DNA from: a virus
Taxonomy: Duplodnaviria; Heunggongvirae; Uroviricota; Caudoviricetes
Virus record (IMG/VR): IMGVR_UViG_2740892051_000004
Coordinates: 1 to 48,835 of that record
Length of the DNA: 48,835 nt
Direction: 5' to 3' (one strand)
Below the pieces are notes generated by a model, which made no database searches, was not told the origin of the DNA, and saw nothing but the letters and a program-made list of their open reading frames with translations. Position 1 is the first letter of the stretch. Each line of letters begins with the position of its first letter. Position numbers and translations under genes: made by a program. Shown here in pieces: positions 2,600 through 48,835 of the stretch.

Positions 2600-2607
2600 T
2601 TGCCATT

Positions 2608-2811
2608 ATGGCTACAGTCCCTGCTTTATCTCACCCTGAATTTACCTTTGTCTTTCTGGCTGTCCGCCGTACAGACCGTGATGCCCGTCCACGCCCTGTG
2701 CGTGTAATCGCAGAATGCGAGCATGCTGCACGCCTTAAACTTGCCACTGAATTTATCCTGAGCTTTGCTGCCCGTATCCCTGTGAAAAGAGCCGGGGAGG
2801 TGGTTGCATGA
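2608..2811 (+). CDS. hypothetical small early protein (satellite)
   Basis: 68-codon 3' part of track ORF 2221..2811 starting at internal ATG with AGGAGG RBS; upstream part of that ORF spans the RNA region. Confidence 0.5.
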   Translation: MATVPALSHPEFTFVFLAVRRTDRDARPRPVRVIAECEHAARLKLATEFILSFAARIPVKRAGEVVA

Positions 2812-3044
2812 AATCCATGAATTTTAAGCAAGGCTGCATATTGAGTGAACAGGGGGAGAGTCGTCTGTTACGGGCGGCACTGGCCAGTGAGTTTCTTGCA
2901 GAGGTCTTGTCCGTGCCCACAGTGAATGGAGCGAGAACTGTTTCAGCGGAAGGCGCTGCGGCTTTAGTGGCCTGTATTGCCGAACAACTGGATGGCGTTG
3001 TTAAGGAAACCAGCACAATTAAGGGAGTGATGCGCGATGAATAA
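2808..3044 (+). CDS. hypothetical protein (satellite early operon)
   Basis: 78 aa ORF, 4-nt overlap with flanking ORFs (translational coupling). Confidence 0.5.
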   Translation: MKSMNFKQGCILSEQGESRLLRAALASEFLAEVLSVPTVNGARTVSAEGAAALVACIAEQLDGVVKETSTIKGVMRDE

Positions 3045-3447
3045 TAATCAAAATTTAAAGGCGCATGCTTTACGAACAGCAGTCTTACGCTACTACATTG
3101 CTGATGCATTCATTTCCTTAATGGTGCGTGTTCATAATGAACCTGTTTATATTGAAGATGGCGAACGAATAGAACTCTCCCACGAAAAAGTGGTGAGTAA
3201 TATTATTTACCATATTGAAATGCCGTGGGTGAATGAGTTTGGGGCTGATGCTGGTTGCATACTGGCCGCAGAGAAACTGGAAAAAATGCTTAAACCAGGC
3301 TTTATGTCAGAAAATATTCGCCTGTCAGTTTTTGGTGTCACAGAGATGCGTGAGGTTTACCGGGATATTATTTTCGGAGCACCTGATGGCGAACTACCCG
3401 AAGGTTTTGAATTTGTGAAGCCGGAAGGTCAGGAGGTGCTGCTGTGA
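3037..3447 (+). CDS. hypothetical protein upstream of primase (position of P4 eps/orf151)
   Basis: 136 aa ORF overlapping primase start by 4 nt. Confidence 0.55.
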   Translation: MNNNQNLKAHALRTAVLRYYIADAFISLMVRVHNEPVYIEDGERIELSHEKVVSNIIYHIEMPWVNEFGADAGCILAAEKLEKMLKPGFMSENIRLSVFGVTEMREVYRDIIFGAPDGELPEGFEFVKPEGQEVLL

Positions 3448-6131
3448 AAACACCGTCTGTATCCACGATTTCCGGAGCTGCAATTGGGCGCTGGCCTTAT
3501 ATCCTGTCAGCATTAGGTATTAAAGTACCGTCCGCAGGACATCATGGGGCTTGCCCTGCCTGTGGTGGAAAAGATCGTTTTCGACTGGACGATAAAGCGG
3601 GGCGAGGGACGTGGTTTTGTAATCAGTGCGGTCATGGCGATGGTCTTGATCTGGTTCGTCTGGTGACAGGAAGAAAGATAAAAGAAGTCGCCGGGATGGT
3701 ATCTGAGGCGCTTGCATTACCAGAAATACAGGAGAAGCCCGCATTGCCAGCCAGGAAAAAGGCCGCAGGAAAAGAAGCGGGCGCGGAGCGATATACCAGA
3801 CTCAGACAGCAGTCCTGCAATGGTGAGCCGGTCTATCTGACAAATAAGAGCTTACACGGGTATTCACTTCCCTTGCTGTCACAGCCTTTGAATCTGGCCG
3901 GAATAACATTTTCCACCGGTTCATTACTGCTGCCTTTGACGGATATTTCCGGGAATATTACTGGTGGCCAGCTTATCAATCCTGACGGGGATAAAAGTCT
4001 GCTGCCCGGTAGCCAGCTGTCTGGCGCATTCATTGCCCTGACCGATATACCCGCTGAAACACCTGAACAGGTGATTATCACTGAGGGTTTTGCCACGGCG
4101 CTTACCGTCAGTCTGCTGACTGAAGGATGGATCGTGGCGGCTGTCGCTGCCACCAATTTACTGAAGGTGACGGAGCAGATCCGAAAACGCTGGCCGGAAA
4201 CCCGGATCATTCTGGCCGGAGATAATGATCTGGCTGACGGCAAAGAAAACACCGGGCGTATTCAGGCAGAGAAAGCCGCCAAAGCGGTGGATGGCTGGGT
4301 AACGCTCCCTCCGGTACGCCATAAGGCTGACTGGGATGATTATCGGCAGGAAGTGGGGAAAGAACGGGCGAGAGATGCCTTTCGTGAAGAAATGACGCTG
4401 CATGGCAAAGGGCAGACCCGTTTACCAGAAGGGTTCCGGCTGACAAAAGAATATTTGTGGTACGACAAGCTGGTTAATAAGTCTGATGGTGATACAGAGA
4501 TACGTAATATCAAAATTTGCAGTCCGTTGCGGGTGACGGCAATCACCAGTGATGCTGATGGAAGTAATTACGGGCGTTTGCTGGAATGGGAAGATACCAA
4601 CGGAAACAGCCGTAAATGGGCAATGCCGATGGAGATGCTGGGCGGTAGCGGGGAAGAACTGCGCCGCGTTCTGCTGGTTAACGGGCTTTCTTACATCAAC
4701 ATTAACGGCATGGCCAGAGCATTCCTGATGGAATATATCTCGCTGTGTAAACCGGACAGAAAAGTAACCTGTGTGAATAAAACTGGCTGGCACGGCGGGG
4801 TTTACGTTCTCCAGGATGAAGTGATAGGGCGCGAAGCCCAGTCAGTCATCTTACAAACATCGAGTGTGCAGGGGCGTGATTTTCGTGTCAGCGGCACATC
4901 AGAGGGCTGGCGTGAAAATATAGGCCGTTATTGCATAAAGAATGCCCGTCTTGCCTTTGCGGTGAGTCTGGCATTTGCTGCCCCCCTTCTGAAACTGGTT
5001 GGTATCGGCGGTGGAGGTTATCACCTCAAAGGGGAATCCACAGACGGTAAAACCACGACGATGAAAGTGGCTGCATCAGTATGTGGTGGAACAGATTTCT
5101 GGCATACGTGGCGGGCGACGGGGAATGCCTTAGAAGGAACGGCGAGCCGCCGCAATGATGCCACGCTGATGCTGGATGAAATCCGGGAGGTTGACGGCAG
5201 GGAGGCGGGAAATATCGCTTATATGCTGGCTAACGGGCAGGGCAAAGCCAGAGCCAGAACAGATGGTTCGGTAAGGGAAACCAACCGCTGGAATCTGTTG
5301 TTTCTGTCTACCGGGGAACTGTCACTGGTAGAGCATGCGGCAAGCGCCGGGGAACGTACGTATGCCGGGGTTGAGGTCAGAATGATCCAGATCCCAAGCG
5401 ATTCGGGCAAGTATGGCGTGTTTGAAGAACTTCATGGCTTCAGTAGCGGGAAAACCCTGGCTGAGCATCTTGAGCAGCACGTAGCGCATTATCATGGTGC
5501 ACCATTCCGCGACTGGCTGTATTGCCTGACCGCTGATCTGCCGGAACTGACCAGTCAGGCGAAAGCCTTATTGAAAGAGTATACCCGAAGGCTGACGCCG
5601 GAAAATGCCGGGAATCAGGTTGGCCGGGCTGTTACCCGTTTTGCTCTGGTTGCGATGGCCGGGGAGCTGGCCACAAAAGCGGGCATCACAGGATGGCCGG
5701 AGGGAGAGGCCTTTCGTGCCGCTCAAAGCTGTCTGGCTGCATGGATGGCTGACCGGGGCCATACAGCTAATCAGGAAGATAAAGCGGCACTTGAACAGGT
5801 TCGGGACTTCATGACGCGTAATCAGTTCAGTCGGTTTGCTGACTGGAATGACGACAGGAACCGGCCTGTTTCAATGATGGGATTCAGAAAAGTCGATAAA
5901 GGAGACAACGTGACAGAGCCGGTTGTGACGTTCTACGTTCTCCCGTCAGGCTGGAAGGAGATCTGTAAGGGATTTGACTCGCGTAAGGTGGCCAGGTTGT
6001 GTGTGGACGCGGGCTGGCTGAAACCCGGTGAAGATGGCCGGACGCAAAACAGCATTCGCCTGCCAGAAATAGGGCTTAAACGTGTGTACCAGTTCAATAC
6101 ACAGGTACTGGGAAGCGCTGAACCTGAGTGA
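3444..6131 (+). CDS. P4 alpha-type primase-helicase
   Basis: 895 aa; N-terminal zinc ribbon CPACGG...CNQCGH, TOPRIM-like 'ITEGF...ILAGDNDL', Walker A 'GESTDGKTT'. Confidence 0.9.
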   Translation: MKTPSVSTISGAAIGRWPYILSALGIKVPSAGHHGACPACGGKDRFRLDDKAGRGTWFCNQCGHGDGLDLVRLVTGRKIKEVAGMVSEALALPEIQEKPALPARKKAAGKEAGAERYTRLRQQSCNGEPVYLTNKSLHGYSLPLLSQPLNLAGITFSTGSLLLPLTDISGNITGGQLINPDGDKSLLPGSQLSGAFIALTDIPAETPEQVIITEGFATALTVSLLTEGWIVAAVAATNLLKVTEQIRKRWPETRIILAGDNDLADGKENTGRIQAEKAAKAVDGWVTLPPVRHKADWDDYRQEVGKERARDAFREEMTLHGKGQTRLPEGFRLTKEYLWYDKLVNKSDGDTEIRNIKICSPLRVTAITSDADGSNYGRLLEWEDTNGNSRKWAMPMEMLGGSGEELRRVLLVNGLSYININGMARAFLMEYISLCKPDRKVTCVNKTGWHGGVYVLQDEVIGREAQSVILQTSSVQGRDFRVSGTSEGWRENIGRYCIKNARLAFAVSLAFAAPLLKLVGIGGGGYHLKGESTDGKTTTMKVAASVCGGTDFWHTWRATGNALEGTASRRNDATLMLDEIREVDGREAGNIAYMLANGQGKARARTDGSVRETNRWNLLFLSTGELSLVEHAASAGERTYAGVEVRMIQIPSDSGKYGVFEELHGFSSGKTLAEHLEQHVAHYHGAPFRDWLYCLTADLPELTSQAKALLKEYTRRLTPENAGNQVGRAVTRFALVAMAGELATKAGITGWPEGEAFRAAQSCLAAWMADRGHTANQEDKAALEQVRDFMTRNQFSRFADWNDDRNRPVSMMGFRKVDKGDNVTEPVVTFYVLPSGWKEICKGFDSRKVARLCVDAGWLKPGEDGRTQNSIRLPEIGLKRVYQFNTQVLGSAEPE

Positions 6132-6156
6132 TTATCGCGTGAGTCTTATTTTTATG

Positions 6157-6347
6157 AGGTAACACTGGTAACAGAGGTAACACCCGTTACTGATGCGGTT
6201 CTTCAGTGTTACCAGTCAAAAATACTGACTGGTAACAGAGGTAACAAAAAATGGTGTGTTACCACGCGTTACCTCTTGATTTTGCTAACTGGTAACAGAT
6301 TAAATCCTTTTAAATCAATAGCGTTACACGTGTTACCAGTGTTACAC
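6157..6347 (+). repeat. iteron array (satellite ori/crr-like)
   Basis: More than 12 copies of GGTAACA / TGTTACC in both orientations immediately after primase stop. Confidence 0.6.
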
Positions 6348-6413
6348 GTTCAGAACAAGAGGTAGGGATCCAAATCCCTTCTTCTGGCGGGCAACAGTAT
6401 AGGGCACAGAACG

Positions 6414-6686
6414 ATGAAGATGATGAGAATGTACTGCCCCACATGTCAGGCAGTAGCACGGATAGGTAAAACAAACAGGAAACACCCACAACTGTACGAT
6501 GTGTACTGCTATTGCTCTAATGTGGAGTGCGGTCACTCGTTTGTGATGAATGTTGCTTTCTCCCATTCCGTTAGTCCAAGCGCGCTGAACGGGCAGGGAA
6601 GGGTTAAAGAGCTGATTGATGCAATTCCACCCGAGGAACGGGAAAAGGCTTTAAAGTTGCTGCTGGCTGCGCAAAAGAATGGGTAA
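6414..6686 (+). CDS. Ogr/Delta-family zinc-finger late transcription activator
   Basis: 90 aa; 'CPTCQ...16 aa...CYCSNVECGH' C4 zinc finger as in P2 Ogr / P4 Delta. Confidence 0.7.
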   Translation: MKMMRMYCPTCQAVARIGKTNRKHPQLYDVYCYCSNVECGHSFVMNVAFSHSVSPSALNGQGRVKELIDAIPPEEREKALKLLLAAQKNG

Positions 6687-7365
6687 AGTATGCGTCGGGA
6701 ATGGCCGATCTGTTCCCGGAACCTGAACACAGGATTTCAGTTTATACGGTCATAAAATTATTATTTTTCAACTGGTTATCTTCTTCATGTTTCACAAACC
6801 TTCATAAAATCACACACCTAAAATTAATTATCCATTTAATATCATAGAGTTGCGTATTCAGGCCATAGATTCGACGGACAGTAAAACTGAAAAAAAATGA
6901 ATTTCTTTTCATTCTTTTCAGTTCCTGTATCGCAGTACATCTCGAGGACTGGCACGGACTGGCGGTATCGTTTGTAAAAAATCCAGGCTGAAAATTTTTA
7001 GTGATATGAAAACCGCAGGCGGGTGCGGTGTAGTGCCGTTTTGGTCTGTCGAGCGTATATTTTCCTTTTTCACGATTGCTGCATATCAAAACGAATGTGC
7101 AGATATCAGGCCGTGTCAAACCGTGAATCGTGGAGCCTAAATGCCCAAACTACGTTTGTAGACCTAGCTAGGGGAAGGTTTCCACATATACTGCTACCTA
7201 TCTTCCAGTCGCTGGTGAGGATCAAGGTAAGCTAACTGGTGAACAAGAAAAGTACTTTCGTATCTTGCGTACTCGTTTTTTTTGATTAGTATGTACAGGT
7301 AGTAACTGGATGGTGAGAATTCGTCATAACTTATCAAATTGCATGATGTTTATAGAGTATGAGTA

Positions 7366-8247
7366 ATGAGTCATAATAAAAAGGAATATGCTAAATTTTT
7401 CCGTCGCCCCATTTTTTCATCCTTAGCAAAAGGTAAGGATATTTCGGATTTATTTGGGAGTTTTGATTCTTACTGCTATGAAACACTGTTTTCAAACAAT
7501 GATAATAATGAACATGAGATTTCACTAAGGGATTTATTTACATCATTATATGATTTTTTGCGTCTGAATTATAGAAATGAATATGTTTATAAGACAGCAC
7601 TTGTCAATAAAATAATATTCGGTAAGCACAGCCCAAAAACAAGTTCGTCGTCCATAGAGTTACCAATTAAAAACTCTATAGTGGATGTTGCGGTGTTTAA
7701 TGGTACGTCTACAGCTTACGAGATTAAGACAGAGTATGATTCACCAAAAAGGTTGATTACTCAAGCCCCTGATTATTTGGATGTTTTTGATAAAGTGTAT
7801 ATAGTTACACATCCAGAGTATGCAAGTAAATATTGTGCTTTAAATCTCCCCAGAGTGGGAGTTATGGTTTTGAATAAAAAAGATCAATTGAGTGTCATTA
7901 AGGAGGCAGATTCAAATATTGATTATATTAAAAGTGACAGCTTGTTTTCAGTTCTTAGAAAGGAAGAGTTCTTAGCTATAATAGAAGATTACACTTCAAC
8001 TAAAATAAATATGCCTAACGGATTGGTTTATGAATATTGTAAAGAGATATTCATGCAGATGCCATTAAACATAGCAAATAAATACTTTATCTCTGCTATG
8101 AAAAAAAGATGTAACGATAAAGTTTTTTTGGATTATATTTATTCTCTTCCAGCATGTTTACGTGTTTTAGGTTATGCAACACCATTATCAAGAAAGCAAA
8201 AAGAATTCATCATGAATTTGATGGATGTAAAAATTAAAATTTGTTGA
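7366..8247 (+). CDS. PD-(D/E)xK nuclease-like protein, first gene of AT-rich cargo cassette (candidate defense)
   Basis: 293 aa; 'SIVDVAVFNGTSTAYEIKTEY' gives D...E-x-K catalytic signature; Lys/Asn/Ile-rich, strongly AT-rich DNA. Confidence 0.7.
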   Translation: MSHNKKEYAKFFRRPIFSSLAKGKDISDLFGSFDSYCYETLFSNNDNNEHEISLRDLFTSLYDFLRLNYRNEYVYKTALVNKIIFGKHSPKTSSSSIELPIKNSIVDVAVFNGTSTAYEIKTEYDSPKRLITQAPDYLDVFDKVYIVTHPEYASKYCALNLPRVGVMVLNKKDQLSVIKEADSNIDYIKSDSLFSVLRKEEFLAIIEDYTSTKINMPNGLVYEYCKEIFMQMPLNIANKYFISAMKKRCNDKVFLDYIYSLPACLRVLGYATPLSRKQKEFIMNLMDVKIKIC

Positions 8248-8268
8248 TATCCTCAGGAGTTGTAAGTT

Positions 8269-9219
8269 ATGTATAGCCCATATTTGTATGCGAGAAGTAC
8301 AGAGTTATTATGCCTTAGGGACCTCGTTGCGAAGGGAGTTAGCCTAAATGGTCTGCTACCAATTTTAGAACCAATTAACGTCAATACGAGAAATTTATTA
8401 ACATGTTTAAATGTTTGGAATTCTGACATAATTGTTATCCTTAATCCTTATCAGGAAGATTTTTCTTCACACAATAACGTCTTAACTTTAAATCAAAATT
8501 TATCAAGTGTATTAACAAATAAAAATAATATCATCTCTGGATATCTTATTCAGCCCAATACAACGATTAATGATATTAATAATTGGTTGAATGCTAACTT
8601 AAATAGACGAGTTGCACTTCTATATGATAATCCATCATTATCCAACTCTGATATTCAGTTGTTGGCGACAAATCAATTGATTAGTTATCATGTTGTTTTA
8701 AATAATAAAATGCTTCCTAATCAGTGCGCTCTTCTTCCTTTGTCGAAGTTAATTATTATTAGCGATAACTTTAGAAAGTTAGCAAAAAATGCTGATTATA
8801 ATGGGCCGGAACTTTTCACGCACGCACATCAATTCGTGGGACAAAATTACTTAGGATTTGGCGATTATACAATTACTGGCCAGGTACTAGATCTTGGAGG
8901 TGGTCAACCTTCTGCTGTTGCCGCACATTTGGTGTTCAAGAATTTACAAGCGAATACAGTTTGGATTCGTCATTTTGTATCAAGCAACACGCAACGAGGA
9001 AGTTCAAATGTTACTGCAAAATTTTTAGATGTTTCAGATCAAATTACAAATCTTGTTCCCCAACATCCAACCCAGTTTGGCAGCAACATTGGTCTTAACT
9101 ATTATTATTACAATAGTCAACCAACTGTAAGGCATTTCCCTGGGTTGCCAAAAAACAAACAGTATCAAATTACTCACCATATTTGTTTCATGCTGGATTT
9201 AATAGCAGGTCGTATTTAA
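8269..9219 (+). CDS. hypothetical protein, second gene of cargo cassette (partner of nuclease-like protein)
   Basis: 316 aa, 21 nt after upstream gene, same AT-rich composition; N-terminus 'MYSPYLYARSTELLCLRDL'; 3' end overlaps integrase stop by 21 bp. Confidence 0.7.
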   Translation: MYSPYLYARSTELLCLRDLVAKGVSLNGLLPILEPINVNTRNLLTCLNVWNSDIIVILNPYQEDFSSHNNVLTLNQNLSSVLTNKNNIISGYLIQPNTTINDINNWLNANLNRRVALLYDNPSLSNSDIQLLATNQLISYHVVLNNKMLPNQCALLPLSKLIIISDNFRKLAKNADYNGPELFTHAHQFVGQNYLGFGDYTITGQVLDLGGGQPSAVAAHLVFKNLQANTVWIRHFVSSNTQRGSSNVTAKFLDVSDQITNLVPQHPTQFGSNIGLNYYYYNSQPTVRHFPGLPKNKQYQITHHICFMLDLIAGRI

Positions 9220-10374
9220 TAAGCTAGCGTACCATTCCATCATTACTTGTCGATCTTTAATATATTGCGCATGATTGTAAGTACCTCGAATAGAGTTCTT
9301 ATCAACATGCGCAAGCTGCATTTCAATCCAGGCACTTTCAAACCCATGCTCATGCAAGATGGTGCTCATGGTATGCCTGAAACCGTGACCCGTTAACCGA
9401 CCGTGATAACCCAGTAGTTTTATCACTTTGTTGATGCTGGCTTCGCTCATTGGTTTACTGACGTCATTCCGGCCAGGGAAAACGAGGCTGTAATTCCCTG
9501 TTATTTCTTGCAGCTTTTTCAGGATATTGATCGCCTGAGTTGATAACGGAACCAGATGGGGGCGGCGTTTCTTCATCCGTTCTTTGGGGATCTCCCATAA
9601 GGCATTATCTAAATCAAACTCAGCCCATTCCGCTGCACGTAGTTCAATTGTTCGCACGCCTGTTAGCATCAACAGCTGCGTGGCGTATTTGGTAACTAAA
9701 CTGCCCTGATAGTTATCCAGAGCATTAACGAACTCGGGCAACTCGCTTTCAGTCAGGAACGGGAAGTGTTGGGTTTTAGGTTTGTTGAGTGCGATAGCTA
9801 AATCGGGTGCAAAATTATACTTTGCTCTACCAGTGGCAACAGCATAACGAAGCACTTCACCACAGCGGCGGCGGATCTTACTGGTTTGCTCTAGCGCACC
9901 TCTTTTCTCTATTTTTTGCAGGACGGTTAGCAGTTCTAATGGTTCAATCTGCTCAATTGGGCGCTGGCCGATAAAAGGAAAAATATCCTTTTCCATACAA
10001 TTGAGAACCTCTTTTGCATAACCCTCTGACCAGGTGGCTTTTTTCGATGAGTGCCATTCTCTGGCCACAGACTCAAAGCTGTTCTCATGCGCGAACTGCA
10101 AAGCAATCTTATCTGCTTTTCTGGCTTCACTTGGGTTTATCCCGTTGGCTAACATCGAACGCGCTTCATCACGTTTGGTACGTGCCTGTGCCAACGACAC
10201 ATCGCCATATACGCCAAAGGAAATCATCTTAGGCTTACCTGCAAAGCGATAGCGAAAACGCCAGCCTTTACTGCCCGCTGTGTCGATCAGGAGTGATAGC
10301 CCCATACCATCGTTAAGCGTATAGGGTTTGTCCTTCGGTTTTGCTCTTTTTATTTGGATGTCAGATAGCAGCAT
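9199..10374 (-). CDS. int: tyrosine integrase, P4 family with arm-type N-terminal domain
   Basis: Start set at internal Met 'MLLSDIQIKRAKPK'; C-terminal catalytic 'HGFRHT...LAHVD...RGTYNHAQY'. Confidence 0.9.
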   Translation of the reverse strand: MLLSDIQIKRAKPKDKPYTLNDGMGLSLLIDTAGSKGWRFRYRFAGKPKMISFGVYGDVSLAQARTKRDEARSMLANGINPSEARKADKIALQFAHENSFESVAREWHSSKKATWSEGYAKEVLNCMEKDIFPFIGQRPIEQIEPLELLTVLQKIEKRGALEQTSKIRRRCGEVLRYAVATGRAKYNFAPDLAIALNKPKTQHFPFLTESELPEFVNALDNYQGSLVTKYATQLLMLTGVRTIELRAAEWAEFDLDNALWEIPKERMKKRRPHLVPLSTQAINILKKLQEITGNYSLVFPGRNDVSKPMSEASINKVIKLLGYHGRLTGHGFRHTMSTILHEHGFESAWIEMQLAHVDKNSIRGTYNHAQYIKDRQVMMEWYASLLNTTCY

Positions 10375-10622
10375 GTGTATAGAAAAAAGATCGAACTCAG
10401 TTATACACAATGTTATACGCAAAGATGTATAGATTCCATTAGAAATAATGGTACTTTGCTGGACGAGTATAAGGAGATGATATCAGTTAAAACAGTGAGT
10501 TATGGAATTAATTGAACTTAGTGAGAAGTGTTCATGGTGTCCCCTGCAGACATCTACTTGGCGCGGCAGGGGATTGATTGGAATGGTGTTTTTTAGATGT
10601 GAAAAATATTTTACCCGCTATT

Positions 10623-26053: not shown

Positions 26054-26128
26054 GGGTCAGTCGTATAAAGGTCATTACGGAAGGCTGTTAACCTTCTTAT
26101 CGTGGTTCGAGTCCACGCTGTCCCGCCA
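26054..26128 (+). tRNA. tRNA, anticodon GTT (Asn), hand-folded
   Basis: Acceptor stem with one mismatch, D-loop GG, anticodon loop CTGTTAA, T-arm CGTGG-TTCGAGT-CCACG, 3' CCA encoded. Confidence 0.55.
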
Positions 26129-26133
26129 AACAT

Positions 26134-26209
26134 GCTGGTTTAGCTCCAATGGTAGAGCAGTCGCCTTGTAAGCGAATGGGTAGCGGTTCAAGTCCGTTAA
26201 CCAGCACCA
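26134..26209 (+). tRNA. tRNA-Thr (anticodon TGT), hand-folded
   Basis: Acceptor GCTGGTT/AACCAGC, D-arm GCTC-CAATGGT-AGAGC, anticodon loop CTTGTAA, T-loop TTCAAGT, CCA encoded. Confidence 0.65.
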
Positions 26210-41027: not shown

Positions 41028-43763
41028 ATGGCTAATTACCGTGATTTGTTAGAGCAGGCTGGCGCACGTTACGGTGTGCCAGAAGGGTTGATGACTGCAC
41101 TGGGTGCCAAGGAGTCTTCTTACAACCCTGCAGCAGTAAGCTCCTCCGGGGCTGTAGGATTGACTCAGGTTATGCCTGGGACATGGCGTGATATGGGTTA
41201 TACCGATGAGCAAATGCAAAACCCCGAATATCAGGCTGACGCTGGCGCGCGCTATCTGGCAAAGATGTACCAGCAGTTTGGTAACTGGCGTGATGCTCTT
41301 CAGGCTTATCACGACGGCCCCGGCAACGTTATGAAGGCAAAACGTGGTGAATATACGCCAGGACCTGAAGGCCGCGGTTACGTTGATGATCGCTTTGCTC
41401 AATGGGCGGGTGACCCGGTGACAGACTCAACAGTCGAACAGCGCGCCACCTCTGCAAAGGTACATCCTCAGCAAGACCCTAACAACCCGTTTGCACAACT
41501 GGAAGCACAGTCATCCGAACAAGTATCGGCATCAGGTGTGCAGTCAGACCCAAATAATCCATTTGCTCAGATTGAGCAGCAGGCAGCCAGTCAGCAGCCA
41601 CCTCAACCCGTAAGTTCTGTCGCACCGAAACCTGTTCAGCAACAAACAGTTAATCAGGCCAATAATGCACCAACACGGGAAGAACCATCATTGATGCAAC
41701 AAGCTGGCGATTGGCTCACTGGTGGTCAAAGTGCAGGGCAAATTGCAGAACAGGCTGGTCGTGGTCTGGTAAACATACCATTTGACGTATTACAGGGTGG
41801 CGCAAGTCTGATTAATGCAATCAGCCAGGGGCTCGGTGGCCCCAAGGTTTTGGATGATGTTTATCGCCCTGTCGATCGACCGACAGACCCTTATGCGCAA
41901 GCTGGAGAGTCAATAGGCGGTTATCTTGTTCCTGGAGCAGGTGTAGCTGGAAACATGGTCATTGGTTCTCTCGCTGACGCGGCGAATCAACGGGGTGATT
42001 TTGCCGAAAATGCCGCTATTAATGCCGGACTTAACATTGCTACGCATGGCCTGATAAATGGCGTTACCCGTGGTGTTCGTGGTGCATCAAATATAATTAG
42101 TGGCAATAAAACATCTGCACAGAGAGCGACCACTGCGCCAACAGAAACATCACCATTCTCCGGTGATGCCGCAGAGGCAACAAATCCTGCGGTTCATGCC
42201 GCAGAGGCAAGAGCAGCACAAGGTGTACCAATGACTCCTGCGACGAGGAACCCAGAGGAAGTCGTTCGCACAGTAGCAGCACAAAAAAGGCCAAATCTCG
42301 CTTCATCGCTTGATGAACTAGATATCAATCCTCAGGCTGAAGTTCTGGAGTCTGCTGAAAGGCTTAATGTTGATTCATTACTCCCTTCACACTTTTCCGG
42401 GAACGAGCAATACAAGGCAGTTGAGCAAGCAATCAAGTCCCGTGCGGGTTCTGCTCTACAGGTGCAGGAAAATGAAGCAATCAGGCAGCTAGCACAGGGT
42501 GCGGGGGAGATAATTGATCGCGTTTCCGGTGCAAAAGATGCTCTTGGTATGAGCGACAAGTTTATTGATACGGTCAATGGAAGAATGTCTGCGCTGATGA
42601 AACGAAGCGACCAGCTTTATCGCAATGTTGAAAAGGCGATGCCTGCAGGTGCAAAAATTGATGCGCCATCAACAAGGTCAATGCTCAAACAGGTGGCAGA
42701 AGATCTTGGCGGGATGAAAAACCTTGACCCTATTGAAAAGAGAGTCTTTCGGGCAGTTAATCCAGGCAAGAACGGCGCATTAACTTATGCAAATCTCAAT
42801 AAGCAACGACGACTTGTTGGTGATGCACTTCATAAGAATTCTGGACCATATAAAGATGCTGATCGCGCTGCTTTATCGAGGCTTTACGGTTCGCTCGCCG
42901 ATGATCAAAAGGCGGCGCTGTCAGAGACAAATGCATTACGTGATTTTGAAGTTGCTCAGAGGCTTGTTCAGATGCGAAAAAGCATGGAAGAGCAAATGAT
43001 TAATCTAACTGGCAGAACGCTGAACGGTGATGTTTCTCGCAAAGCAACTACAGCACTACAGGCAATGTCGAAAGGCGATGCCAAAGGATTTCGTGAATTG
43101 ATGCAAAACACGCCGTCCAGGAAGCTAAGAACCGAGCTACTGGGAACAGGTCTTCGTGATATGCTTTCGAACGGAAAACGTGGCGCTGATTTTAATCCTG
43201 CAGGGTTTGCTGACTGGTATCAAAACATGTTAGCAAACGGGCAGATGCGCAATCTTGCCCGACATTTACCAAAAGAGACTATGTCAGGTCTGAACGATGT
43301 ATATAAGGTCGCAAAGGCTATCAAAGATGCAAAATCTTACGAGATAACTACAGGAAGACTAAACGAGTTCGTCAAACGGTTTAATCGCGTCACTGCGGCA
43401 AATGAATTTGTTGCTAACCATGCCCAACGCATTGGCACTGCGGTTGGTTCAACTGTGTCAGGACCGTTCAGTGCAGTAGGTGCTGTTGCTGGGTCAGAAA
43501 TTGGGGCAAAAGTCGCCAGCAAAATTAGGGCGATGGGCGGCGCTGCATCAATGGAATCTGCAGAAAAGCTAATTAGCTCACCAGAATTCCAGAAAGCAGC
43601 AAGGTTGGCAGTAAGACAAGCACCAGAAAGCATCGTTGATACAACTGTAAGACGCTCTTCTGCTTGGCGCTCGTTTTACAACTCACTTCCAGAATCAGAT
43701 AAGAAAACCATATCAAGGCTAGGCATCATGTACTGGATGAACAGTGATGATAACCAGAAGTAA
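41028..43763 (+). CDS. ejection/injection protein with N-terminal lytic transglycosylase (SLT) domain
   Basis: '[28 protein letters not shown]...YLAKMY' SLT catalytic Glu motif; 911 aa. Confidence 0.75.
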
Positions 43764-43780
43764 CGGAAAGCCACGGATGG

Positions 43781-43861
43781 TTAGTTGCTGTCTTTTTTAT
43801 ATAAATCTCTGAGCGTATCAAAGAAAATTTTCTTTACCATATCAGATTGTTGTTCTGCCAT
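43781..43861 (-). pseudogene. mnt-like 3' remnant (26 codons)
   Basis: Minus strand encodes 'MAEQQSDMVKKIFFDTLRDLYKKDSN', homologous to C-terminus of intact Mnt at 45008..45259; no N-terminal half. Confidence 0.4.
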
Positions 43862-43951
43862 ACGCGATGCTATTGGTAGCGATGAATTCAATCGCTTGTC
43901 GAGAGCTGGTATTGTCGCCTCGTTAAGCGGTATGAATGAATATGAATAGCT

Positions 43952-44437
43952 TTATCTAATGTTGCTGCTACTGTTGCATGTGACGGTATTTCCAAATCCT
44001 GAATTGCAGTTTGTATAGGTGTCAACACGCGTCGGGTAAGGTTGAGTTATAACAGGCTGGCGCGCTTTTTGCTCGATCGCTTGCATTGTGTTTACAGCCT
44101 GATAATTCAATAAAGCCTGCTGGAATGCTTGGCTTTGCGCTATTTGTTGGGCTTGTTCTTGGCTTTGTAATTGAACATAAAGATTCTGAAGCTCAAGTCT
44201 TGCCTGCGCGTCACTTATCTTGCCATCATCGACACCTTGCCCGAGCATCTTCGCAGCAAGGACATATAACTTAGGTGTTGGTGCTGATGCCATGCGTGAG
44301 TCGTTCTTCACGCTAGCATCAAGGCAATTAGCCATATCGCTAAGCTTTGGATAGCGTTGTTCGCAACTTGCCTGATAGTCGCTAACCTTTGCACACCCTG
44401 CCAGCAGAAGCGGGATAATTAACAGTGATTTTTTCAT
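43952..44437 (-). CDS. lipoprotein (moron), function unknown
   Basis: Start 'MKKSLLIIPLLLAGC' signal peptide with lipobox, GGAGAG RBS; Gln-rich C-terminal half. Confidence 0.6.
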   Translation of the reverse strand: MKKSLLIIPLLLAGCAKVSDYQASCEQRYPKLSDMANCLDASVKNDSRMASAPTPKLYVLAAKMLGQGVDDGKISDAQARLELQNLYVQLQSQEQAQQIAQSQAFQQALLNYQAVNTMQAIEQKARQPVITQPYPTRVDTYTNCNSGFGNTVTCNSSSNIR

Positions 44438-44571
44438 ATGATTAACTCTCCTTATCTTTGCCATCATGGCACTGTTGGGTGTAAATGAGTTATTAACTCA
44501 ATCGACAATATCTTCACGAAAATACTTTTTATTATTAAGATCTTTCTGATTCTAACAAAACGGAAAGTAAT

Positions 44572-44991
44572 ATGAAGAGGATTATCGGCGTCGTTGCTGG
44601 CGCTATATTGTTATCTGGGTGCGCAACTATTGTTGGTGATGAAACGCAGCTTGTGCAAGTGAACAGCAATCCTTCTGGCGCGAGCTTTAAGGTAAAAGAT
44701 GAATCTGGTGTGATTGTTGCGCAAGGTAAGACTCCACAAGGTGTAACACTCGCCAAGTCAGATGGTAGCTATTTTGGCAAAAAGAGCTACCAGATCACTA
44801 TGGAGAAGGATGGGTACGAACCAGTTACCCTGCCAATCAAAGCCAATGCTAATGGTTGGTATATTGGTGGGAACCTTGTGTTTGGTGGGTTAATTGGTTG
44901 GCTTGCTGTAGATCCATTTAATGGTGGGATGTATACCTTGAAGCCAAAAGAGGCAAACGCATCTCTTATACCATCAACAAAGCAAGACTAA
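44572..44991 (+). CDS. lipoprotein (moron), function unknown
   Basis: 'MKRIIGVVAGAILLSGC' lipobox; Gly-rich 'GWYIGGNLVFGGLIGWL' segment. Confidence 0.6.
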   Translation: MKRIIGVVAGAILLSGCATIVGDETQLVQVNSNPSGASFKVKDESGVIVAQGKTPQGVTLAKSDGSYFGKKSYQITMEKDGYEPVTLPIKANANGWYIGGNLVFGGLIGWLAVDPFNGGMYTLKPKEANASLIPSTKQD

Positions 44992-44997
44992 TAAATA

Positions 44998-45025
44998 GGA
45001 CCCACCTTCAGGTGGGTTTTTTGTA
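44998..45025. terminator. bidirectional rho-independent terminator
   Basis: CCCACC-ttca-GGTGGG then TTTTTT; overlaps mnt stop. Confidence 0.55.
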
Positions 45026-45259
45026 CAAATCCTTCAGCGTATCAAACACCATCTTCTTAACAAGCTCTGATTGCTCATCAGCGATGCGTTCCGCATCGTC
45101 TCGATAGCCTGAAATTTTGGATGGCCTTGATACAGCATCAGTCACTATCTGAACTAATTCTGAATTAAGAGAGCGGCCATTGGATTTGGCTCGCTGTTTT
45201 AGTTTTTCCTTTAATTCGTAAGGTAGCCGCAGATTAAATTGCGGGTCATCTCTTCCCAT
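45008..45259 (-). CDS. mnt: Mnt repressor (Arc/MetJ ribbon-helix-helix family)
   Basis: 83 aa; 'DDPQFNLRLPYELKEKLKQRAKSNGRSLNSELVQIV...DAERIADEQSELVKKMVFDTLKDLYKK' closely matches P22 Mnt. Confidence 0.85.
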   Translation of the reverse strand: MGRDDPQFNLRLPYELKEKLKQRAKSNGRSLNSELVQIVTDAVSRPSKISGYRDDAERIADEQSELVKKMVFDTLKDLYKKPT

Positions 45260-45323
45260 TCTTGATGCCTCGCTCTTGTGAGTGGATCGGCATCTTATTA
45301 TCTGCTGGTTGCATCCTCAATAA

Positions 45324-45336
45324 GACCACGGTGGTC
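45324..45336. promoter_or_regulatory. candidate Mnt operator
   Basis: Perfect palindrome GACCACGGTGGTC upstream of mnt, resembling the P22 Omnt core. Confidence 0.45.
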
Positions 45337-45394
45337 GTATTTTTTGGTTAATAATGCATCACTGCGGCCATTCCTTGTATCTGGAGCAAATTAA

Positions 45395-47569
45395 ATGACA
45401 GACATTACAGCCAATGTTGTGGTGAGCATGCCTTCGCAACTCTTCACTATGGCCCGCTCTTTTAAAGCCGTAGCTAATGGCAAAATTTATATCGGTAAAA
45501 TTGACACTGACCCAGTAAATCCTGAAAACCAGATTCAGGTTTATGTGGAGAATGAAGACGGTTCTCACGTTCCTGTTTCGCAACCAATAATCATTAACGC
45601 TGCTGGATATCCGGTATATAACGGACAGATTGCCAAATTCGTAACCGTGCAAGGCCATTCTATGGCTGTTTATGATGCGTATGGTACACAGCAGTTCTAT
45701 TTTCCGAATGTGCTGAAGTATGACCCGGATCAGTTTAAATTACTTATTGGCGGTACAGATGGTAGTAAATATATCGGTTTCGGCGCTTCAACGGTTTACG
45801 ATGCAATCAGGAAAACACCTCAATACTATGGAGCTAAAGCAGATGGATTGACATCAGATTCTGATGCCATTAATGCCGCAGCATTAGCTGCTTTTAATAA
45901 TGGTGGTGGGGAAATATTTTACCCTCCAGGTGTTTATTTAATAGATTCTCCTATCATTCTTTATACAGGCGTTCATCATAAAGGCTCTGGAAAGAGAGCA
46001 ACATTTCTGTATGTTAAAAAAGGTAGTAATACAGATGTATTTAAAACACATGGCTTTGGCGTTGTGGAAAATCTGTCTGATGCGCCATATGGATTTAGCA
46101 TAAAAGATATGACCATTGATGGTAATTATCTTGACTTGCAAAGAGATACAAACTCATGGAGAACTTGCGACACTGTTAACAATGACTATGGAACTGCCAT
46201 TAAAATATTCGGCAGCATGTACCATATTGACGTTGAGATTAATAATGTTGCAGAACATGCTCTCTATTCAGAGGGGTATGGATCATTTCATGATAATCAG
46301 GAACACGCCTCTGAAGTGAGGATAACGGGGAGAATTTCAGGGAGAGAGGGGGTTGTGTTCAGGGGGCCAGGTGATATTAACCTGGATTATATTGTTTTTG
46401 GCCTGTGTGGACTTCCTCCTTACAGCGCAAGATTAACAGCAACAAGCCAACAAAGCCTTCTTTATCCAGGAGAACCATGTCATGGAATTGTTCTTGATAA
46501 TCAGTCTCCTTATACAGGACATGTCGATATAAATTACATCCATGTATATGCCGCGTATTATGGCTATGGATTTAAGACGCTGGGTGTTAACCGATTTAAT
46601 GCGAGGCATGTGTGTGTTGATAATAGTTTAGGTGGTTACTGGTTTACCAACGGGGCACATGGTGTTGTTGCCATCGCAGAAGCCAGGGCGTGCGGAAGAA
46701 TGCCAGATAACTACACTGGCGATTCAATTTCTCCTCTCCGCGACATGCTTCTGGATAACGGTACAATCTGGACACTTAACATCAATATAAAAGCACAAAG
46801 ATATTCACCTTCAATTGATGATGATGGGTATCAGATAGCTATATCAGGCAACAACAATGTAGTTACAATAAACCAAATCGGTCAGTTGCAGAGTGACAAT
46901 GCCCCTATTAAAGCCTCGCTTCTTTCTGTTACTGGTGACAATAACAATGTTACTTTTACATCCAAGAGGATAAAAGGAAATTTATGTTACTTATCCGGCG
47001 GTGGTAATAATATAAGAGGTTCGTGTGATAATTTGTTTTCGGGTTCTGCTCTTATTCGCGATGCAGTAAATTCAACAACAATTTGTTTTGCGAACAGCGT
47101 AGATATAACTGCGAAGGGGCTTTCTTCTGATTGCACTGGATTTAACAGCATTGGCACATGTGCATCAGAGAATATAAGATTAATCACTTCAGGCGCAAAT
47201 GGTTATAATAGGTTTTTAGGTGATAGAATGGCAGCCCTTAACAGGACGTGTACGTGGACGATTATGGCAACAGTTGGAAACTCAATAAATGGGAAATCAA
47301 CTGACGATTATATTGAGTGGAATATGCCAAACCCAACAGGTAGCGAATCTAACGAGGTTGATATTGAGCATAATTTTCTGTATGCCCCAACACCAAACCA
47401 GATTGCTGTGTTGGGGTTTAGACAACCTGCTGGTTCTGCAGAAGGTGCAACTTTAAGTCCAATAGAAATTATCGGAACTCCAAGTGAGTCTTCTTTCAGA
47501 ATTAGATACCATTGGTCAGGCCCTTTATCTTCTGGCTCTGCTCCAATTGTAATGTTCAGGATTAGATAG
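45395..47569 (+). CDS. tailspike protein (P22 gp9-like head-binding domain + divergent receptor-binding domain)
   Basis: N-terminus '[18 protein letters not shown]...[37 protein letters not shown]...LKYDPDQF' matches P22 tailspike; remainder AT-rich and unrelated. Confidence 0.85.
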
Positions 47570-47677: not shown

Positions 47678-48835
47678 TCACTCCACCTTTTCATCAAGCC
47701 AGTCCGCCCACCATTGCATCATTTCTCTGCGCTTATCGAGATACTGAGCATGGTTGTAAATTCCACGTACAGATCCGCCGTTGGCATGTGCCAGTTGCAC
47801 TTCAATGGCGTCGGCAGGCCATTCGTGCTCGTTCATAATCGTGCTGAATTCATGCCTGAATCCGTGACCGCTTTCCAGCCCCTCATAGCCGATTTGTTTG
47901 ATCACAAGCAATACCGCGTTCTCGCAGATTGGTTTCTTCTTATCGTTGCGCCCGGCAAAAACAAACTCTGAGACTGGTTTGGTGATTGAGCTTAGCGTAG
48001 TAAGAAGTTCAACCACCTGGTCTGACATAGGAACCACATGAATTTTGCGTCCCTTCATCACACTGGCGTCGATGGTGATAATCCTGTTTTCAAAATCGAC
48101 GTTCTTCCATTGCATGGAGCGAAGCTCTTTCGTTCTTAGGGCTGTGTAGCGTAAAACTTTGGTCGCAATGAGCGATACGATACTTCCTGAAAATGTTGCC
48201 AGTGCTTTGTTGAATGCCGGGATCTGGTCTGCAGGAAGAAACGGGAAGTTCTTCTTGCGGTATCCCTTCATGGCGTCAGCAAGGTCAGGTGCCGGGTTAT
48301 ATTTAGCCCTACCAGTAACAATAGCGTAACGAAAAACCTCGCCGCATCTTCTGCGGGCTTTGTTGGCTCGCTCCATTGCACCGCGATCTTCAAATCTGCG
48401 GATTACTTCCAGCAGTTGCATCGGCTCAATATCCTGAATCTCAAGACCGCCGATGATGGGTAAAATGTCGTCATCAAACATTTTGGCAAGTTCAGTTGCA
48501 TAGCCTACTGACCAGACTTGCTTCTTGTGCTCGTACCATTCCTTGTAAATCGCACTAAATGAATTGTTGTTAGACGAAGCCTTTTTCGCCTTTACCGGAT
48601 CGATGCCAACCGAGATGTCTTTCCTCGCAGTCCATGCCTTATCCCTTGCTTCCTGCAAAGTCATAAGCGGATATTTTCCGACGGTCAGGATTTTCTCCTT
48701 ACCGTCAATCTTGTAGCGAAGCTGCCATACCTTTTTCCCTGACACAGGGACATAAAGGTACAGGCCATTACCATCGAGAAGGCGGTATGGTTTTTCTTTT
48801 GGCTTTGCTGCTTCAATCTGCTTAACGGTGAGCAT
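47678..48835 (-). CDS. int: tyrosine integrase, P4 family (second copy); start codon at window edge
   Basis: 385 aa; paralogous to 9199..10374 ('RRRCGEVFRYAIVTGRAKYNPAPDLA', 'HGFRHE', 'RGIYNHAQY'). Confidence 0.9.
   Translation of the reverse strand: MLTVKQIEAAKPKEKPYRLLDGNGLYLYVPVSGKKVWQLRYKIDGKEKILTVGKYPLMTLQEARDKAWTARKDISVGIDPVKAKKASSNNNSFSAIYKEWYEHKKQVWSVGYATELAKMFDDDILPIIGGLEIQDIEPMQLLEVIRRFEDRGAMERANKARRRCGEVFRYAIVTGRAKYNPAPDLADAMKGYRKKNFPFLPADQIPAFNKALATFSGSIVSLIATKVLRYTALRTKELRSMQWKNVDFENRIITIDASVMKGRKIHVVPMSDQVVELLTTLSSITKPVSEFVFAGRNDKKKPICENAVLLVIKQIGYEGLESGHGFRHEFSTIMNEHEWPADAIEVQLAHANGGSVRGIYNHAQYLDKRREMMQWWADWLDEKVE

Follow-up and report, generated by a model that had tools for sequence, protein, structure and literature searches.

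The region between the last ejection-protein gene and the tailspike gene of this P22-like (Lederbergvirus) E. coli prophage, which is integrated at argW, is another mosaic state of the hypervariable slot called the "ant moron", which in P22 separates genes 16 and 9. In the window (the whole 48,835-nucleotide stretch of DNA that was analysed) the slot holds, from left to right, the truncated 3' end of an mnt gene, two lipoprotein genes (here lipoA and lipoB), an intact mnt and a palindromic operator; arc and ant are absent. The explanation that we favour, with somewhat more confidence than doubt, is that a mosaic slot with a traceable scar history has taken up two independent moron cassettes with putative functions. 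As a genome feature this is an ordinary addition to the known mosaic states, with a microhomology scar that is unusually easy to read. Every element listed in an initial annotation of this DNA is present at or near the position given there, and the locus does correspond to the sieA/immI position of P22, as that annotation had proposed. The borders of the slot and the two remnants at its left end are as follows.

41028..43763, plus strand: last ejection-protein gene, P22 gene-16 homologue of the Sf101/APC_JM3.2 type (911 aa); left border of the slot
43781..43865, minus strand: mnt remnant of the Sf101 type, a pseudogene/recombination scar (85 nt, ~27 codons plus stop)
43857..43949, plus strand: second remnant, the 3' end of gene 16' (Bas106/QML220601-type allele; ~93 nt, ~30 codons plus stop)
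45395..47569, plus strand: tailspike gene (Pfam Head_binding, E=4e-67); right border of the slot

The gene-16 homologue has an N-terminal SLT transglycosylase domain (Pfam SLT, E=2e-25), and its 3' end is 96-98% identical at the nucleotide level to Sf101 and APC_JM3.2. The tailspike consists of P22 head-binding and pectate-lyase-like receptor domains. The slot was described as the "ant moron", mnt-only versions included, by Villafane et al. (2008, BMC Microbiol 8:227; PMC2629481), and its high genetic flux has been known since that year. With the slot described there the window shares the position between gene-16 and gene-9 homologues, the variable content, the independently expressed genes, the truncated or damaged genes and the mnt-only versions; it differs in that the combination of an Sf101-type scar, a gene-16' scar, lipoA, lipoB and mnt does not appear in the figure of that paper, and lipoA was not yet known at the time. 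ST64T and ST104 have mnt-only slots without any lipoprotein gene, and other phages have damaged-gene variants, for example with degraded arc/ant (PMC2629481). In the relative H39, the slot carries an IS insertion.

The minus-strand ORF at 43781-43891 matched Pfam Repressor_Mnt (PF11423) with E=2.9e-11, by the C-terminal domain alone, and residues 56-81 of P22 Mnt matched the remnant in tblastn (E=2.8e-8). Over positions 43600-43865 the DNA is 96.6% identical to phage Sf101, where the stretch covers the gene-16 end and the 3' end of the mnt-like gene; collinearity with Sf101 stops at 43865, and identity collapses beyond it. The remnant peptide RMAEQQSDMVKKIFFDTLRDLYKKDSN aligned to RMAEQQSDMVKKIVFDTLKELYKKDSS of Sf101, and in E. 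coli WCHEC050613 PGAP labels this piece an Arc-family gene that is incomplete. Because of the DNA match to the gene 16/mnt end of Sf101, the remnant is a true truncated gene and not a chance ORF, so that profile, tblastn and DNA alignment all uphold the earlier reading of this fragment as mnt-like. Judged by its sequence, it stems from a different (Sf101-type) allele and is no duplicate of the resident mnt. The idea that the remnant peptide acts as a dominant-negative fragment in Mnt tetramerisation was rejected: the start is TTG, there is no Shine-Dalgarno sequence and the N-terminal codons are derived from the junction.

While the initial annotation was right to place a real mnt remnant beside an intact mnt, it overlooked the second remnant at 43857-43949. 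This piece of gene 16' is 93.8% identical to the end of the Bas106 DNA-transfer-protein gene and 99.3% identical to E. coli QML220601, where gene 16' is intact and is followed directly by lipoA. The two scars join in a 9-nt microhomology, GCCATACGC (43857-43865). Seven complete E. coli genomes have the same scar, as does one IMG/VR contig, and what lies downstream of it differs among them; a search for the exact junction gave no match in the GTDB species representatives and one in IMG/VR. The parental arrangements exist intact in Sf101, in QML220601 (gene 16', then lipoA) and in Gally/EC32 (lipoA-lipoB-mnt-tailspike). These alignments show an illegitimate recombination between an Sf101-like genome (gene 16, mnt, tailspike) and a second P22-like genome, in which gene 16' was followed by a Gally-like block, lipoA-lipoB-mnt-tailspike; the crossover through the 9-nt microhomology left 85 nt of the old mnt and ~93 nt of gene 16' as dead scars. 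The Gally-type donor block was already without arc-ant.

A near-identical lipoA-lipoB-mnt-tailspike block is already present in the published Escherichia phage Gally, the prophage of AIEC LF82: over GALLYPH_13-16, up to the tailspike head domain, it is 96% identical to the window in DNA and 99-100% in protein. Gally differs in having another gene 16 and neither scar, in its integration at torS-torT instead of argW and in the central base of its operator, which is A in Gally and G in the window.

The right half of the slot retains part of the immunity I region of P22.

45008..45259, minus strand: intact mnt (83 aa; Arc PF03869, E=1e-21; Repressor_Mnt PF11423, E=1e-18)
45292..45320, minus strand: Pmnt-like promoter (-35 TTGAGG at 45320-45315, 17-nt spacer, -10 TAAGAT at 45297-45292)
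45324..45336, no strand: Mnt operator homologue, palindrome GACCACGGTGGTC (P22 counterpart GTCCACGGTGGAC)

The mnt product has both domains that define Mnt, an Arc-like ribbon-helix-helix domain and the Mnt tetramerisation domain. It is 75% identical to P22 Mnt (dN/dS 0.13) and has Gln at mature position 6, where P22 Mnt has His. The palindrome, which occurs once in the window and lies 58 nt upstream of the tailspike start codon, aligned position by position with what is annotated in P22 as protein_bind, "mnt operator", and is thus a predicted operator, with the half-site GACCAC compared to GTCCAC in P22, a change that may have co-varied with the Gln at position 6 of Mnt. An intact mnt and a palindromic operator upstream of the tailspike gene, both claimed earlier, were therefore recovered. 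The Pmnt-like promoter was inferred from the alignment to P22 Pmnt/Pant, and the consensus scan did not pick it up; Pant, which overlaps it and points rightward, has degenerate hexamers (TCGGCA / TGCATC). Compared with P22 immI (mnt-Omnt/Pant/Pmnt-arc-sar-ant), the window keeps mnt, the operator palindrome and the Pmnt hexamers at homologous positions, whereas the Pant -10 has decayed to TGCATC and arc, sar and ant, which complete the immunity I region downstream of mnt, are missing; the gap from mnt to the tailspike gene measures 135 nt. In agreement with the initial annotation, the Arc-like domain of Mnt was the only match in the window for P22 Arc and three Ant variants in tblastn, and homologues of arc, ant, sieA, hkcB and rha were found nowhere in the window. 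The present role of Mnt would be autoregulation and/or modulation of the transcription that enters the tailspike gene, and probably this is all that it does.

Between the remnants and mnt lie the two lipoprotein genes.

43952..44437, minus strand: lipoA, predicted outer-membrane lipoprotein (161 aa; lipobox LLAG/C; Ala at +2; PHROG 6067)
44438..44571, no strand: divergent lipoA/lipoB intergenic region, expected to carry both promoters
44572..44991, plus strand: lipoB, predicted outer-membrane lipoprotein (139 aa; lipobox LLSG/C; Ala at +2; PHROG 6823)
45000..45017, no strand: terminator from the terminator scan, a GC-rich hairpin with T-runs between convergent lipoB and mnt

The likeliest start of lipoA is MKKSLLIIPLLLAGC, preceded by an AGGAG Shine-Dalgarno sequence, and the 171-codon ORF that reaches 44467 is an upstream extension; lipoB starts MKRIIGVVAGAILLSGC. 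The LipoA signal peptide and lipobox, MKKSLLIIPLLLAG followed by C, show a basic n-region, a hydrophobic h-region and the pattern [LVI][ASTVI][GAS]C, and those of LipoB, MKRIIGVVAGAILLSG followed by C, likewise have the sequence of a lipobox. In a 33-sequence family alignment of each protein the lipobox Cys is invariant, and among 94 LipoA homologues this Cys and three further Cys are invariant, which bears out the earlier call of two divergent lipobox genes. The mature proteins begin CAKV... (LipoA) and CATI... (LipoB), with no Asp at +2. Both would be made as prolipoproteins, with predicted lipidation of the lipobox Cys and, because of the Ala at +2, Lol sorting to the outer membrane, into its inner leaflet. 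Profile searches and structure prediction, proposed in the initial annotation, assigned the proteins to PHROG 6067 and 6823 and gave AF2 models but no informative structural neighbour or fold match in the PDB and BFVD; Pfam, NCBIfam and PADLOC yielded nothing meaningful for either protein, with no family of PADLOC-DB 2.0 at E<=0.1.

LipoA matched phrog_6067 with E=3e-110. Helices predominate in its AF2 model (pLDDT 67), one of them a long one at 76-125, and a profile search of solved structures matched nothing. In the loci examined, LipoA occurs in P22-like prophages only, from Escherichia to Providencia and Tatumella, and lipoA adjoins the 3' end of gene 16 in all of them; it is present in 186 of 5426 E. 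coli genomes. P22 SieA acts in exclusion from the inner membrane, by blocking the injection of DNA (Leavitt et al. 2024, PMC10883804). LipoA resembles it in size, in its restriction to P22-like prophages and in its expression from the prophage, and its gene has the same position and orientation, directly after gene 16 and convergent with it. However, SieA is polytopic in the inner membrane and carries the motif FxRYPxEAxxFNK (found in P22 and HS1 SieA), whereas LipoA, with a lipobox, a soluble helical body and a predicted outer-membrane anchor, has neither of these hallmarks of SieA types A-C and gave no BLASTP alignment to P22 SieA. SieA of type A or B was found neither in the window nor in any of >90 LipoA loci. 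As few E. coli genomes carry type B (21 of 5426), this lack of co-occurrence is uninformative, and we discarded mutual exclusivity as evidence, the loci also being non-independent.

LipoB has a PEGA/transthyretin/CnaB-like beta-sandwich core in its AF2 model, with a highly conserved Gly-rich hydrophobic motif beside the sandwich; a profile search of solved structures gave only a marginal match to a collagen-adhesin sandwich. It scores 17.6 bits against Pfam PEGA (PF08308; gathering cut-off 20.8), and its homologues are called "PEGA domain-containing" in some sources. Its sequence is identical to Gally GALLYPH_14 and 97.8% identical to epsilon34 gene 15 (PMC2629481), which is LipoB, and lipoB is present in 124 of the 5426 E. 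coli genomes. The protein belongs to a very large bacterial lipoprotein superfamily (>5000 cluster representatives), in which some members are lone chromosomal genes outside prophages and one relative is fused to an OmpA-like barrel. Prophage homologues lie upstream of the tape-measure gene in Proteus and, in a lambda-like prophage, just upstream of a gpJ-like tail-tip gene and downstream of a gpI-like gene. The prophage tail regions in which LipoB homologues lie contain porin morons as well. In HK97-like E. coli prophages a 68%-identical homologue sits between the tail chaperone and tape-measure genes, in the slot of HK97 gp15, a 62-aa protein that has no sequence similarity to LipoB and gave no BLASTP alignment with it. 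HK97 gp15 is reportedly an inner-membrane protein. It is a moron that acts in superinfection exclusion (Cumby et al. 2012, as cited in PMC10883804). A match of LipoB to PHROG 1119 (Cor) covered residues 1-20, that is the signal peptide only (E=0.0034), and was rejected. The known exclusion lipoproteins T5 Llp, phi80/N15 Cor and Streptococcus TP-J34 Ltp are small and phage-encoded, and some are expressed from the prophage. They are a precedent for exclusion, but neither LipoA nor LipoB is homologous to them, nor does either share the mature-protein homology of the Cor/Llp type.

The consensus promoter scan showed no enrichment over shuffles, and two minus-strand sigma-70-like sites (44576->44549 and 44558->44531) did not exceed the chance expectation; statements on promoters are made by eye, from P22 homology and from published RNA-seq. 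The site in epsilon34 that is homologous to the terminator is annotated as Rho-independent, and lipoA and lipoB are each antisense to, or insulated from, the late operon. In LF82 (Gally), transcription of the orthologues does not depend on the late genes, which are silent: in DMEM, log2(fpkm+5) is 7.9-8.2 for LipoA and 9.8-10.5 for LipoB, and after 1 h in macrophages 10.3 and 11.0, compared to about 2.5-4 for the neighbouring injection genes (PMC9928086, S1/S4 tables). Their levels are low in LB stationary phase and strong in DMEM and inside macrophages, a pattern that fits host fitness as well as defence. The LF82 study lists no Gally morons in LB (PMC9928086), because the two lipoprotein genes fall just under its 5-fold cut-off (4.5x and 3.3x). 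Transcription from the prophage is thus shown for both genes in the LF82/Gally orthologues, whose proteins are 99-100% identical. Presence or absence among syntenic relatives, the terminator and this transcription mark lipoA and lipoB as morons.

The initial annotation had viewed the two genes as one surface-acting exclusion module that replaced the antirepressor genes. The genes are indeed adjacent and divergent with a common intergenic region, they occur together in Gally, in vB_EcoP-720R6 and, next to mnt-tailspike, in ~24 of the 5426 E. coli genomes, and the window is without arc/ant. However, each gene mostly occurs without the other (186 and 124 genomes versus ~24), with agreeing patterns in IMG/VR, and the comparison of the locus across P22-like prophages proposed by that annotation showed that they vary independently. 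Each also adjoins an intact mnt-arc-ant elsewhere: for lipoB this is the usual state (epsilon34, the E. coli O111:H8 and NCTC11121 prophages and most of the 124 genomes), and lipoA, in places even with the same scar, does so in ETEC1730, QML220601 and WCHEC050613 and is found together with ant in 20 of 80 IMG/VR loci. One IMG/VR locus (L084) appears to have both lipoprotein genes and ant. The lipoprotein genes occupy the sieA/hkcB sub-slot to the left of mnt, whereas the arc-ant position is to its right, and for this reason they did not replace arc/ant; conversely, mnt-only slots exist without lipoprotein genes (PMC2629481; Sf101). A co-adapted module whose insertion displaced arc-ant from immI is therefore very improbable: lipoA and lipoB are independent moron cassettes, and the absence of arc-ant is a separate, common state of the slot and no consequence of the lipoprotein genes. 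Even less credible is that the two genes are functionless, decaying passengers like the neighbouring remnants. The slot does gather damaged genes (the two scars, the IS in H39, degraded arc/ant in other phages), but both lipoprotein genes are under strong purifying selection (dN/dS 0.02-0.09 over dS up to 0.7; 0.02-0.03 for lipoA, 0-0.09 for lipoB), their ORFs are intact, their lipoboxes are conserved in all aligned homologues and their orthologues are actively transcribed.

As to function, the likeliest single role for LipoA, though less probable than not, would be that of a homotypic superinfection-exclusion factor, a reasonable guess because the protein is confined to P22-like prophages and encoded in the sieA position of P22. 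From the periplasmic face of the outer membrane it would disturb the conduit that the ejection proteins form across the envelope. LipoB, which phages of several types have repeatedly taken up as a moron and which is also found as a chromosomal gene, more probably modifies the envelope in a general way or contributes to fitness, because of its lone chromosomal members outside prophages and its superfamily of >5000 representatives, and an exclusion role for it is possible but less likely. No homology linked LipoA or LipoB to exclusion in comparisons with SieA, Cor, HK97 gp15, PADLOC models and solved or viral structures. The more far-reaching proposal, that LipoA (PHROG 6067) founds a new outer-membrane-anchored exclusion family of P22-like podoviruses, a periplasmic-side counterpart of SieA that blocks assembly or function of the gp7/gp20/gp16 conduit, with LipoB as a second exclusion lipoprotein of broader range, seems to us rather doubtful. 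A little less doubtful, and still unlikely, is that both are host-fitness (lysogenic-conversion) outer-membrane factors that alter the envelope (stress tolerance, serum or macrophage survival, adhesion), as do lambda Bor or Lom. The low expression of the LF82 orthologues in LB stationary phase and their strong expression in DMEM and macrophages speak for this, as do the huge LipoB family with its non-prophage members and OmpA-like barrel relative, and the porin morons in the same prophage tail regions. In contrast, LipoA never leaves the gene 16-tailspike slot of P22-like prophages across genera that differ greatly in lifestyle, a pattern that suits a function linked to that type of phage better than a factor for a host niche, and deletion of the co-induced mnt left the survival of LF82 in macrophages unchanged, in a test that concerned mnt and not the lipoprotein genes (PMC9928086).

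These are two strongly conserved, prophage-expressed lipoprotein morons found in 2-3% of complete E. coli genomes, AIEC LF82 and ST131 lineages included. Being strictly linked to the DNA-ejection genes, LipoA is a well-defined candidate for a novel way of excluding P22-like phages, with relevance to the host range of therapeutic and BASEL-type podoviruses; if such a LipoA exclusion family were real, it would outnumber SieA type B in E. coli about ninefold (186 versus 21 of 5426 genomes). A spurious NCBIfam match of LipoA to GspK (18 bits against a cut-off of 130) probably explains why one database record names a LipoA homologue "GspK".

The interval between the last ejection gene (gene 16) and the tailspike gene, here called the slot, contained every element described in the initial annotation: an mnt remnant, two lipoprotein genes, an intact mnt and a palindrome. 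No homologue of arc, ant, sieA, hkcB or rha was found in the whole window. The lipoA ORF formally reaches 44467, and AGGAG precedes the MKKSLLIIPLLLAGC at 44437, which is the start used in relatives.

Features of the slot and its flanks
41028-43763, plus strand, gene-16 homologue, the last ejection gene (911 aa, SLT domain at the N-terminus)
43781-43891, minus strand, short ORF with the mnt 3′ end (36 codons)
43952-44437, minus strand, lipoA, start MKKSLLIIPLLLAGC at 44437
44572-44991, plus strand, lipoB
45000-45017, GC-rich hairpin with T-runs
45008-45259, minus strand, mnt
45324-45336, palindrome GACCACGGTGGTC
45395-47569, plus strand, tailspike gene
47678-48835, minus strand, IntS-type integrase gene

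LipoA and LipoB carry canonical lipoboxes with Ala at +2; by sequence rules both would be lipidated, and the Ala at +2 predicts sorting to the outer membrane. The lipobox Cys was invariant in the alignments (33/33 homologues of each family), and dN/dS was 0.02-0.03 for lipoA (dS up to 0.71) and 0-0.09 for lipoB. Both genes are intact and under strong purifying selection; they are uncharacterised, evidently functional lipoprotein morons. The LF82 study (PMC9928086) gives values, in its supplementary tables, for their orthologues in the LF82 prophage Gally, GALLYPH_13 (LipoA) and GALLYPH_14 (LipoB); GALLYPH_13-17 correspond to 3501-7882 of our locus L001. In stationary LB culture they reached 70 and 51 (fpkm-type units; prophage median 15.6), i.e. 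4.5 and 3.3 times above background. Both are just below the moron cut-off of that study (5-fold, or 78, applied to LB only), and because they fell under it Gally was reported to be moron-free. On the log2(fpkm+5) scale of the same study, LipoA and LipoB stood at 7.9-8.2 and 9.8-10.5 in DMEM and at 10.3 and 11.0 after 1 h in macrophages, while the adjacent injection genes stayed at ∼2.5-4 in both conditions, a tens- to hundreds-fold excess over the neighbouring late genes. Thus, the orthologues are transcribed from the prophage in a near-identical relative, independently of the late operon. The mnt and tailspike genes were co-induced with them, and deletion of mnt was without effect on macrophage survival (PMC9928086).

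The slot itself is a known hypervariable site, the 'ant moron' of Villafane et al. (PMC2629481), who used this name for the gene16-gene9 interval. They distinguished ten types in sixteen genomes, noted truncated genes, and described versions that consist of mnt and a single unknown gene (ST64T, ST104); genes 14 and 15 of epsilon34 were unknowns in their list. Epsilon34 gene 15 is LipoB (97.8% identity), and the region is a further member of this well-described kind of slot. The initial annotation had proposed that a surface-acting exclusion module replaced the antirepressor genes. This part of its interpretation did not hold, because lipoA and lipoB lie to the left of mnt and the arc-ant position is to its right, and because each gene also occurs beside an intact mnt-arc-ant: lipoB in epsilon34, E. 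coli O111:H8 and E. coli NCTC11121, lipoA in ETEC1730, QML220601 and WCHEC050613. Nor do the two genes travel as a pair. This lipoB allele is present in 124 E. coli genomes, and in only ∼24 of them does lipoA adjoin it; ST131 prophages and Salmonella phage VSe13 have LipoA without LipoB. Of the 80 IMG/VR loci with LipoA, with patterns defined by the queried genes only, 31 showed LipoA-Mnt-tailspike, 14 showed LipoA-LipoB-Mnt and 17 had two ST131-type ORFs instead of LipoB; Ant was present in 20, and in one LipoA, LipoB and Ant were apparently together. In complete E. coli genomes the counts were 186/5426 for LipoA, 124/5426 for LipoB and 21/5426 for SieA type B. lipoA and lipoB are independent cassettes, also of arc-ant, which they have not replaced.

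The claim of an intact mnt with a palindromic operator upstream of the tailspike gene was borne out. Mnt (83 aa) has both Pfam domains and is 75% identical to P22 Mnt, and the annotated Pmnt/Pant/Oarc/Omnt region of P22 aligned with the mnt-tailspike spacer, where GACCACGGTGGTC coincided exactly with the 'mnt operator' of P22. Pmnt, reading leftward, has kept its hexamers (TTGAGG, 17 nt, TAAGAT; in P22 TTGAGA, 17 nt, TATCAT), the rightward Pant hexamers have decayed (TCGGCA / TGCATC versus TTGACA / TATATT in P22), and no Arc operator was recognisable in the spacer in this alignment. The predicted operator half-site is GACCAC versus GTCCAC in P22, a symmetric change, and position 6 of mature Mnt is Gln here and His in P22 and epsilon34; Gally shares both Gln6 and GACCAC. 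Residue 6 of Mnt is a base-contacting specificity residue, and therefore the two changes look like co-variation.

The slot has a mosaic history. The short ORF at 43781-43891 matched Pfam Repressor_Mnt (E=2.9e-11), and window 43600-43865 was 96.6% identical to Sf101 DNA through the gene 16 end, a spacer of 17 nt and the 3′-terminal 85 nt of an mnt-like gene of 97 codons, so the supposed mnt fragment is a real remnant. Identity to Sf101 dropped off past 43865. From 43857 the window matched the final ∼90 nt of the Bas106 DNA-transfer (gene-16) gene at 93.8% identity and E. coli QML220601 at 99.3%; in the latter gene 16 is intact and lipoA follows two bases on; from 43952 to past 45500 it was 96% identical to Gally. 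Two scars can thus be read from the alignments, an mnt 3′ end and the end of a second gene-16 allele (gene 16′). The Sf101 and Bas106 homologies overlap in GCCATACGC (GCAATACGC in Bas106), a 9-nt microhomology at an illegitimate junction. The breakpoints show that an Sf101-type left arm (gene 16 with mnt immediately after it) was joined within mnt to an incoming gene16′-lipoA-lipoB-mnt-tailspike block, cut ∼30 codons short of the gene 16′ end. The same scar recurs in 7 complete E. coli genomes and 1 IMG/VR contig with differing downstream genes, and therefore predates the present gene content. The remnant ORF begins with TTG, lacks a ribosome-binding site and takes its N-terminal codons from the junction, so nothing suggests that it is expressed; in E. 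coli WCHEC050613, PGAP annotates the scar as an incomplete Arc-family gene. That locus (L029, 4857-5897) has the same scar and lipoA, with one XhlA-family gene and one Rap1a/Tai-family gene between lipoA and mnt. The Rap1a/Tai family provides type VI effector immunity, and these genes are further evidence that the slot gathers envelope- or periplasm-acting accessory genes. In Bas106 (L005, 3088-3107) no moron separates gene 16 from the tailspike gene, yet the match to the window continues ∼20 nt beyond the gene-16 stop into what corresponds to the lipoA 3′ end; a lipoA since deleted may have left this trace.

What might the lipoproteins do? LipoA (PHROG 6067, without assigned function) had only 94 homologues in a large protein search, all in Enterobacterales. 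A homologue 55% identical to it is encoded by a Proteus phage. The AF2 model of LipoA (pLDDT 67) combines a small helical domain with a Gln-rich helix of ∼50 residues and with a C-terminal hairpin that is Cys-stapled and has at least 2 sequence variants. In every locus examined (Escherichia, Salmonella, Serratia, Morganella, Providencia, Tatumella, Citrobacter and one metagenome-assembled genome), the gene-16 homologue stood on one side of lipoA and the tailspike head-binding domain on the other, and lipoA abutted the gene 16 3′ end convergently, down to 50% identity. P22 sieA has the same position and orientation; no sequence similarity was found between LipoA and SieA. Our best guess for LipoA, a tentative one that we rate somewhat below an even chance, is homotypic exclusion, in which LipoA, on the periplasmic side of the outer membrane, would act on the ejection-protein conduit. 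We favour it because lipoA stays linked to the ejection-gene module of a single phage type throughout many host genera, and because it replaces sieA positionally. The main rival is that LipoA and LipoB could be Bor/Lom-like host-fitness factors, which fits the induction of both genes in DMEM and macrophages.

For LipoB (PHROG 6823, without assigned function), a general envelope or fitness role seems at least as likely as exclusion. AF2 gave a confident transthyretin/PEGA-like sandwich (pLDDT >90); the most conserved part of the protein, the motif NGWYIGGN-x3-GG-x2-G-x4-DP-x2-G-x-MY, was poorly modelled. The superfamily comprises 5382 representatives of 50%-identity clusters (E<=1e-3). In other phage types, close homologues are morons. 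HK97-like E. coli prophages (loci L011-L015, each at about 6001-6414; ED1a, CU928162, is an example) have a 68%-identical one flanked by the tail-chaperone T gene and the tape-measure gene, in the slot that the exclusion 'moron product' gp15 occupies in HK97; in most of these prophages a porin gene also separates tail genes M and L. Other homologues precede the tape-measure gene in Proteus prophages, sit between a gpI-like gene and, just downstream, a gpJ-like tail-tip gene in a lambda-like prophage, or stand as lone chromosomal genes outside prophages. A distant family representative (P0236, 365 aa) carries, as a fusion, an OmpA-like outer-membrane beta-barrel domain, which would fit an outer-membrane location of the family and could be a gene-calling artefact.

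Positions 1-10422 of the window lie outside the P22-like prophage and belong to a P4-like/PICI-like satellite.

Features of the satellite
1129-2133, P2-family major capsid gene
2221-2811, Ash-family gene
3444-6131, primase-helicase gene (Zn-ribbon, Toprim, DUF927)
9199-10422, minus strand, P4-type integrase gene

The satellite integrase and the prophage IntS share 45% identity. TGGTGTCCCCTGCAG, at 10536-10550, matches the tRNA-Arg(CCT) argW 3′ end in reverse complement, and related loci have the full argW tRNA beside the IntS gene; this partial copy marks the distal att site of the prophage. The satellite integrase gene has its 5′ end 114 nt away, which points to tandem integration at argW, so that a satellite with a capsid gene would stand in tandem with the prophage at one tRNA site. 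Genes for tRNA-Asn(GTT) and tRNA-Thr(TGT) lie inside the prophage (26054-26209), just upstream of the lysis genes.
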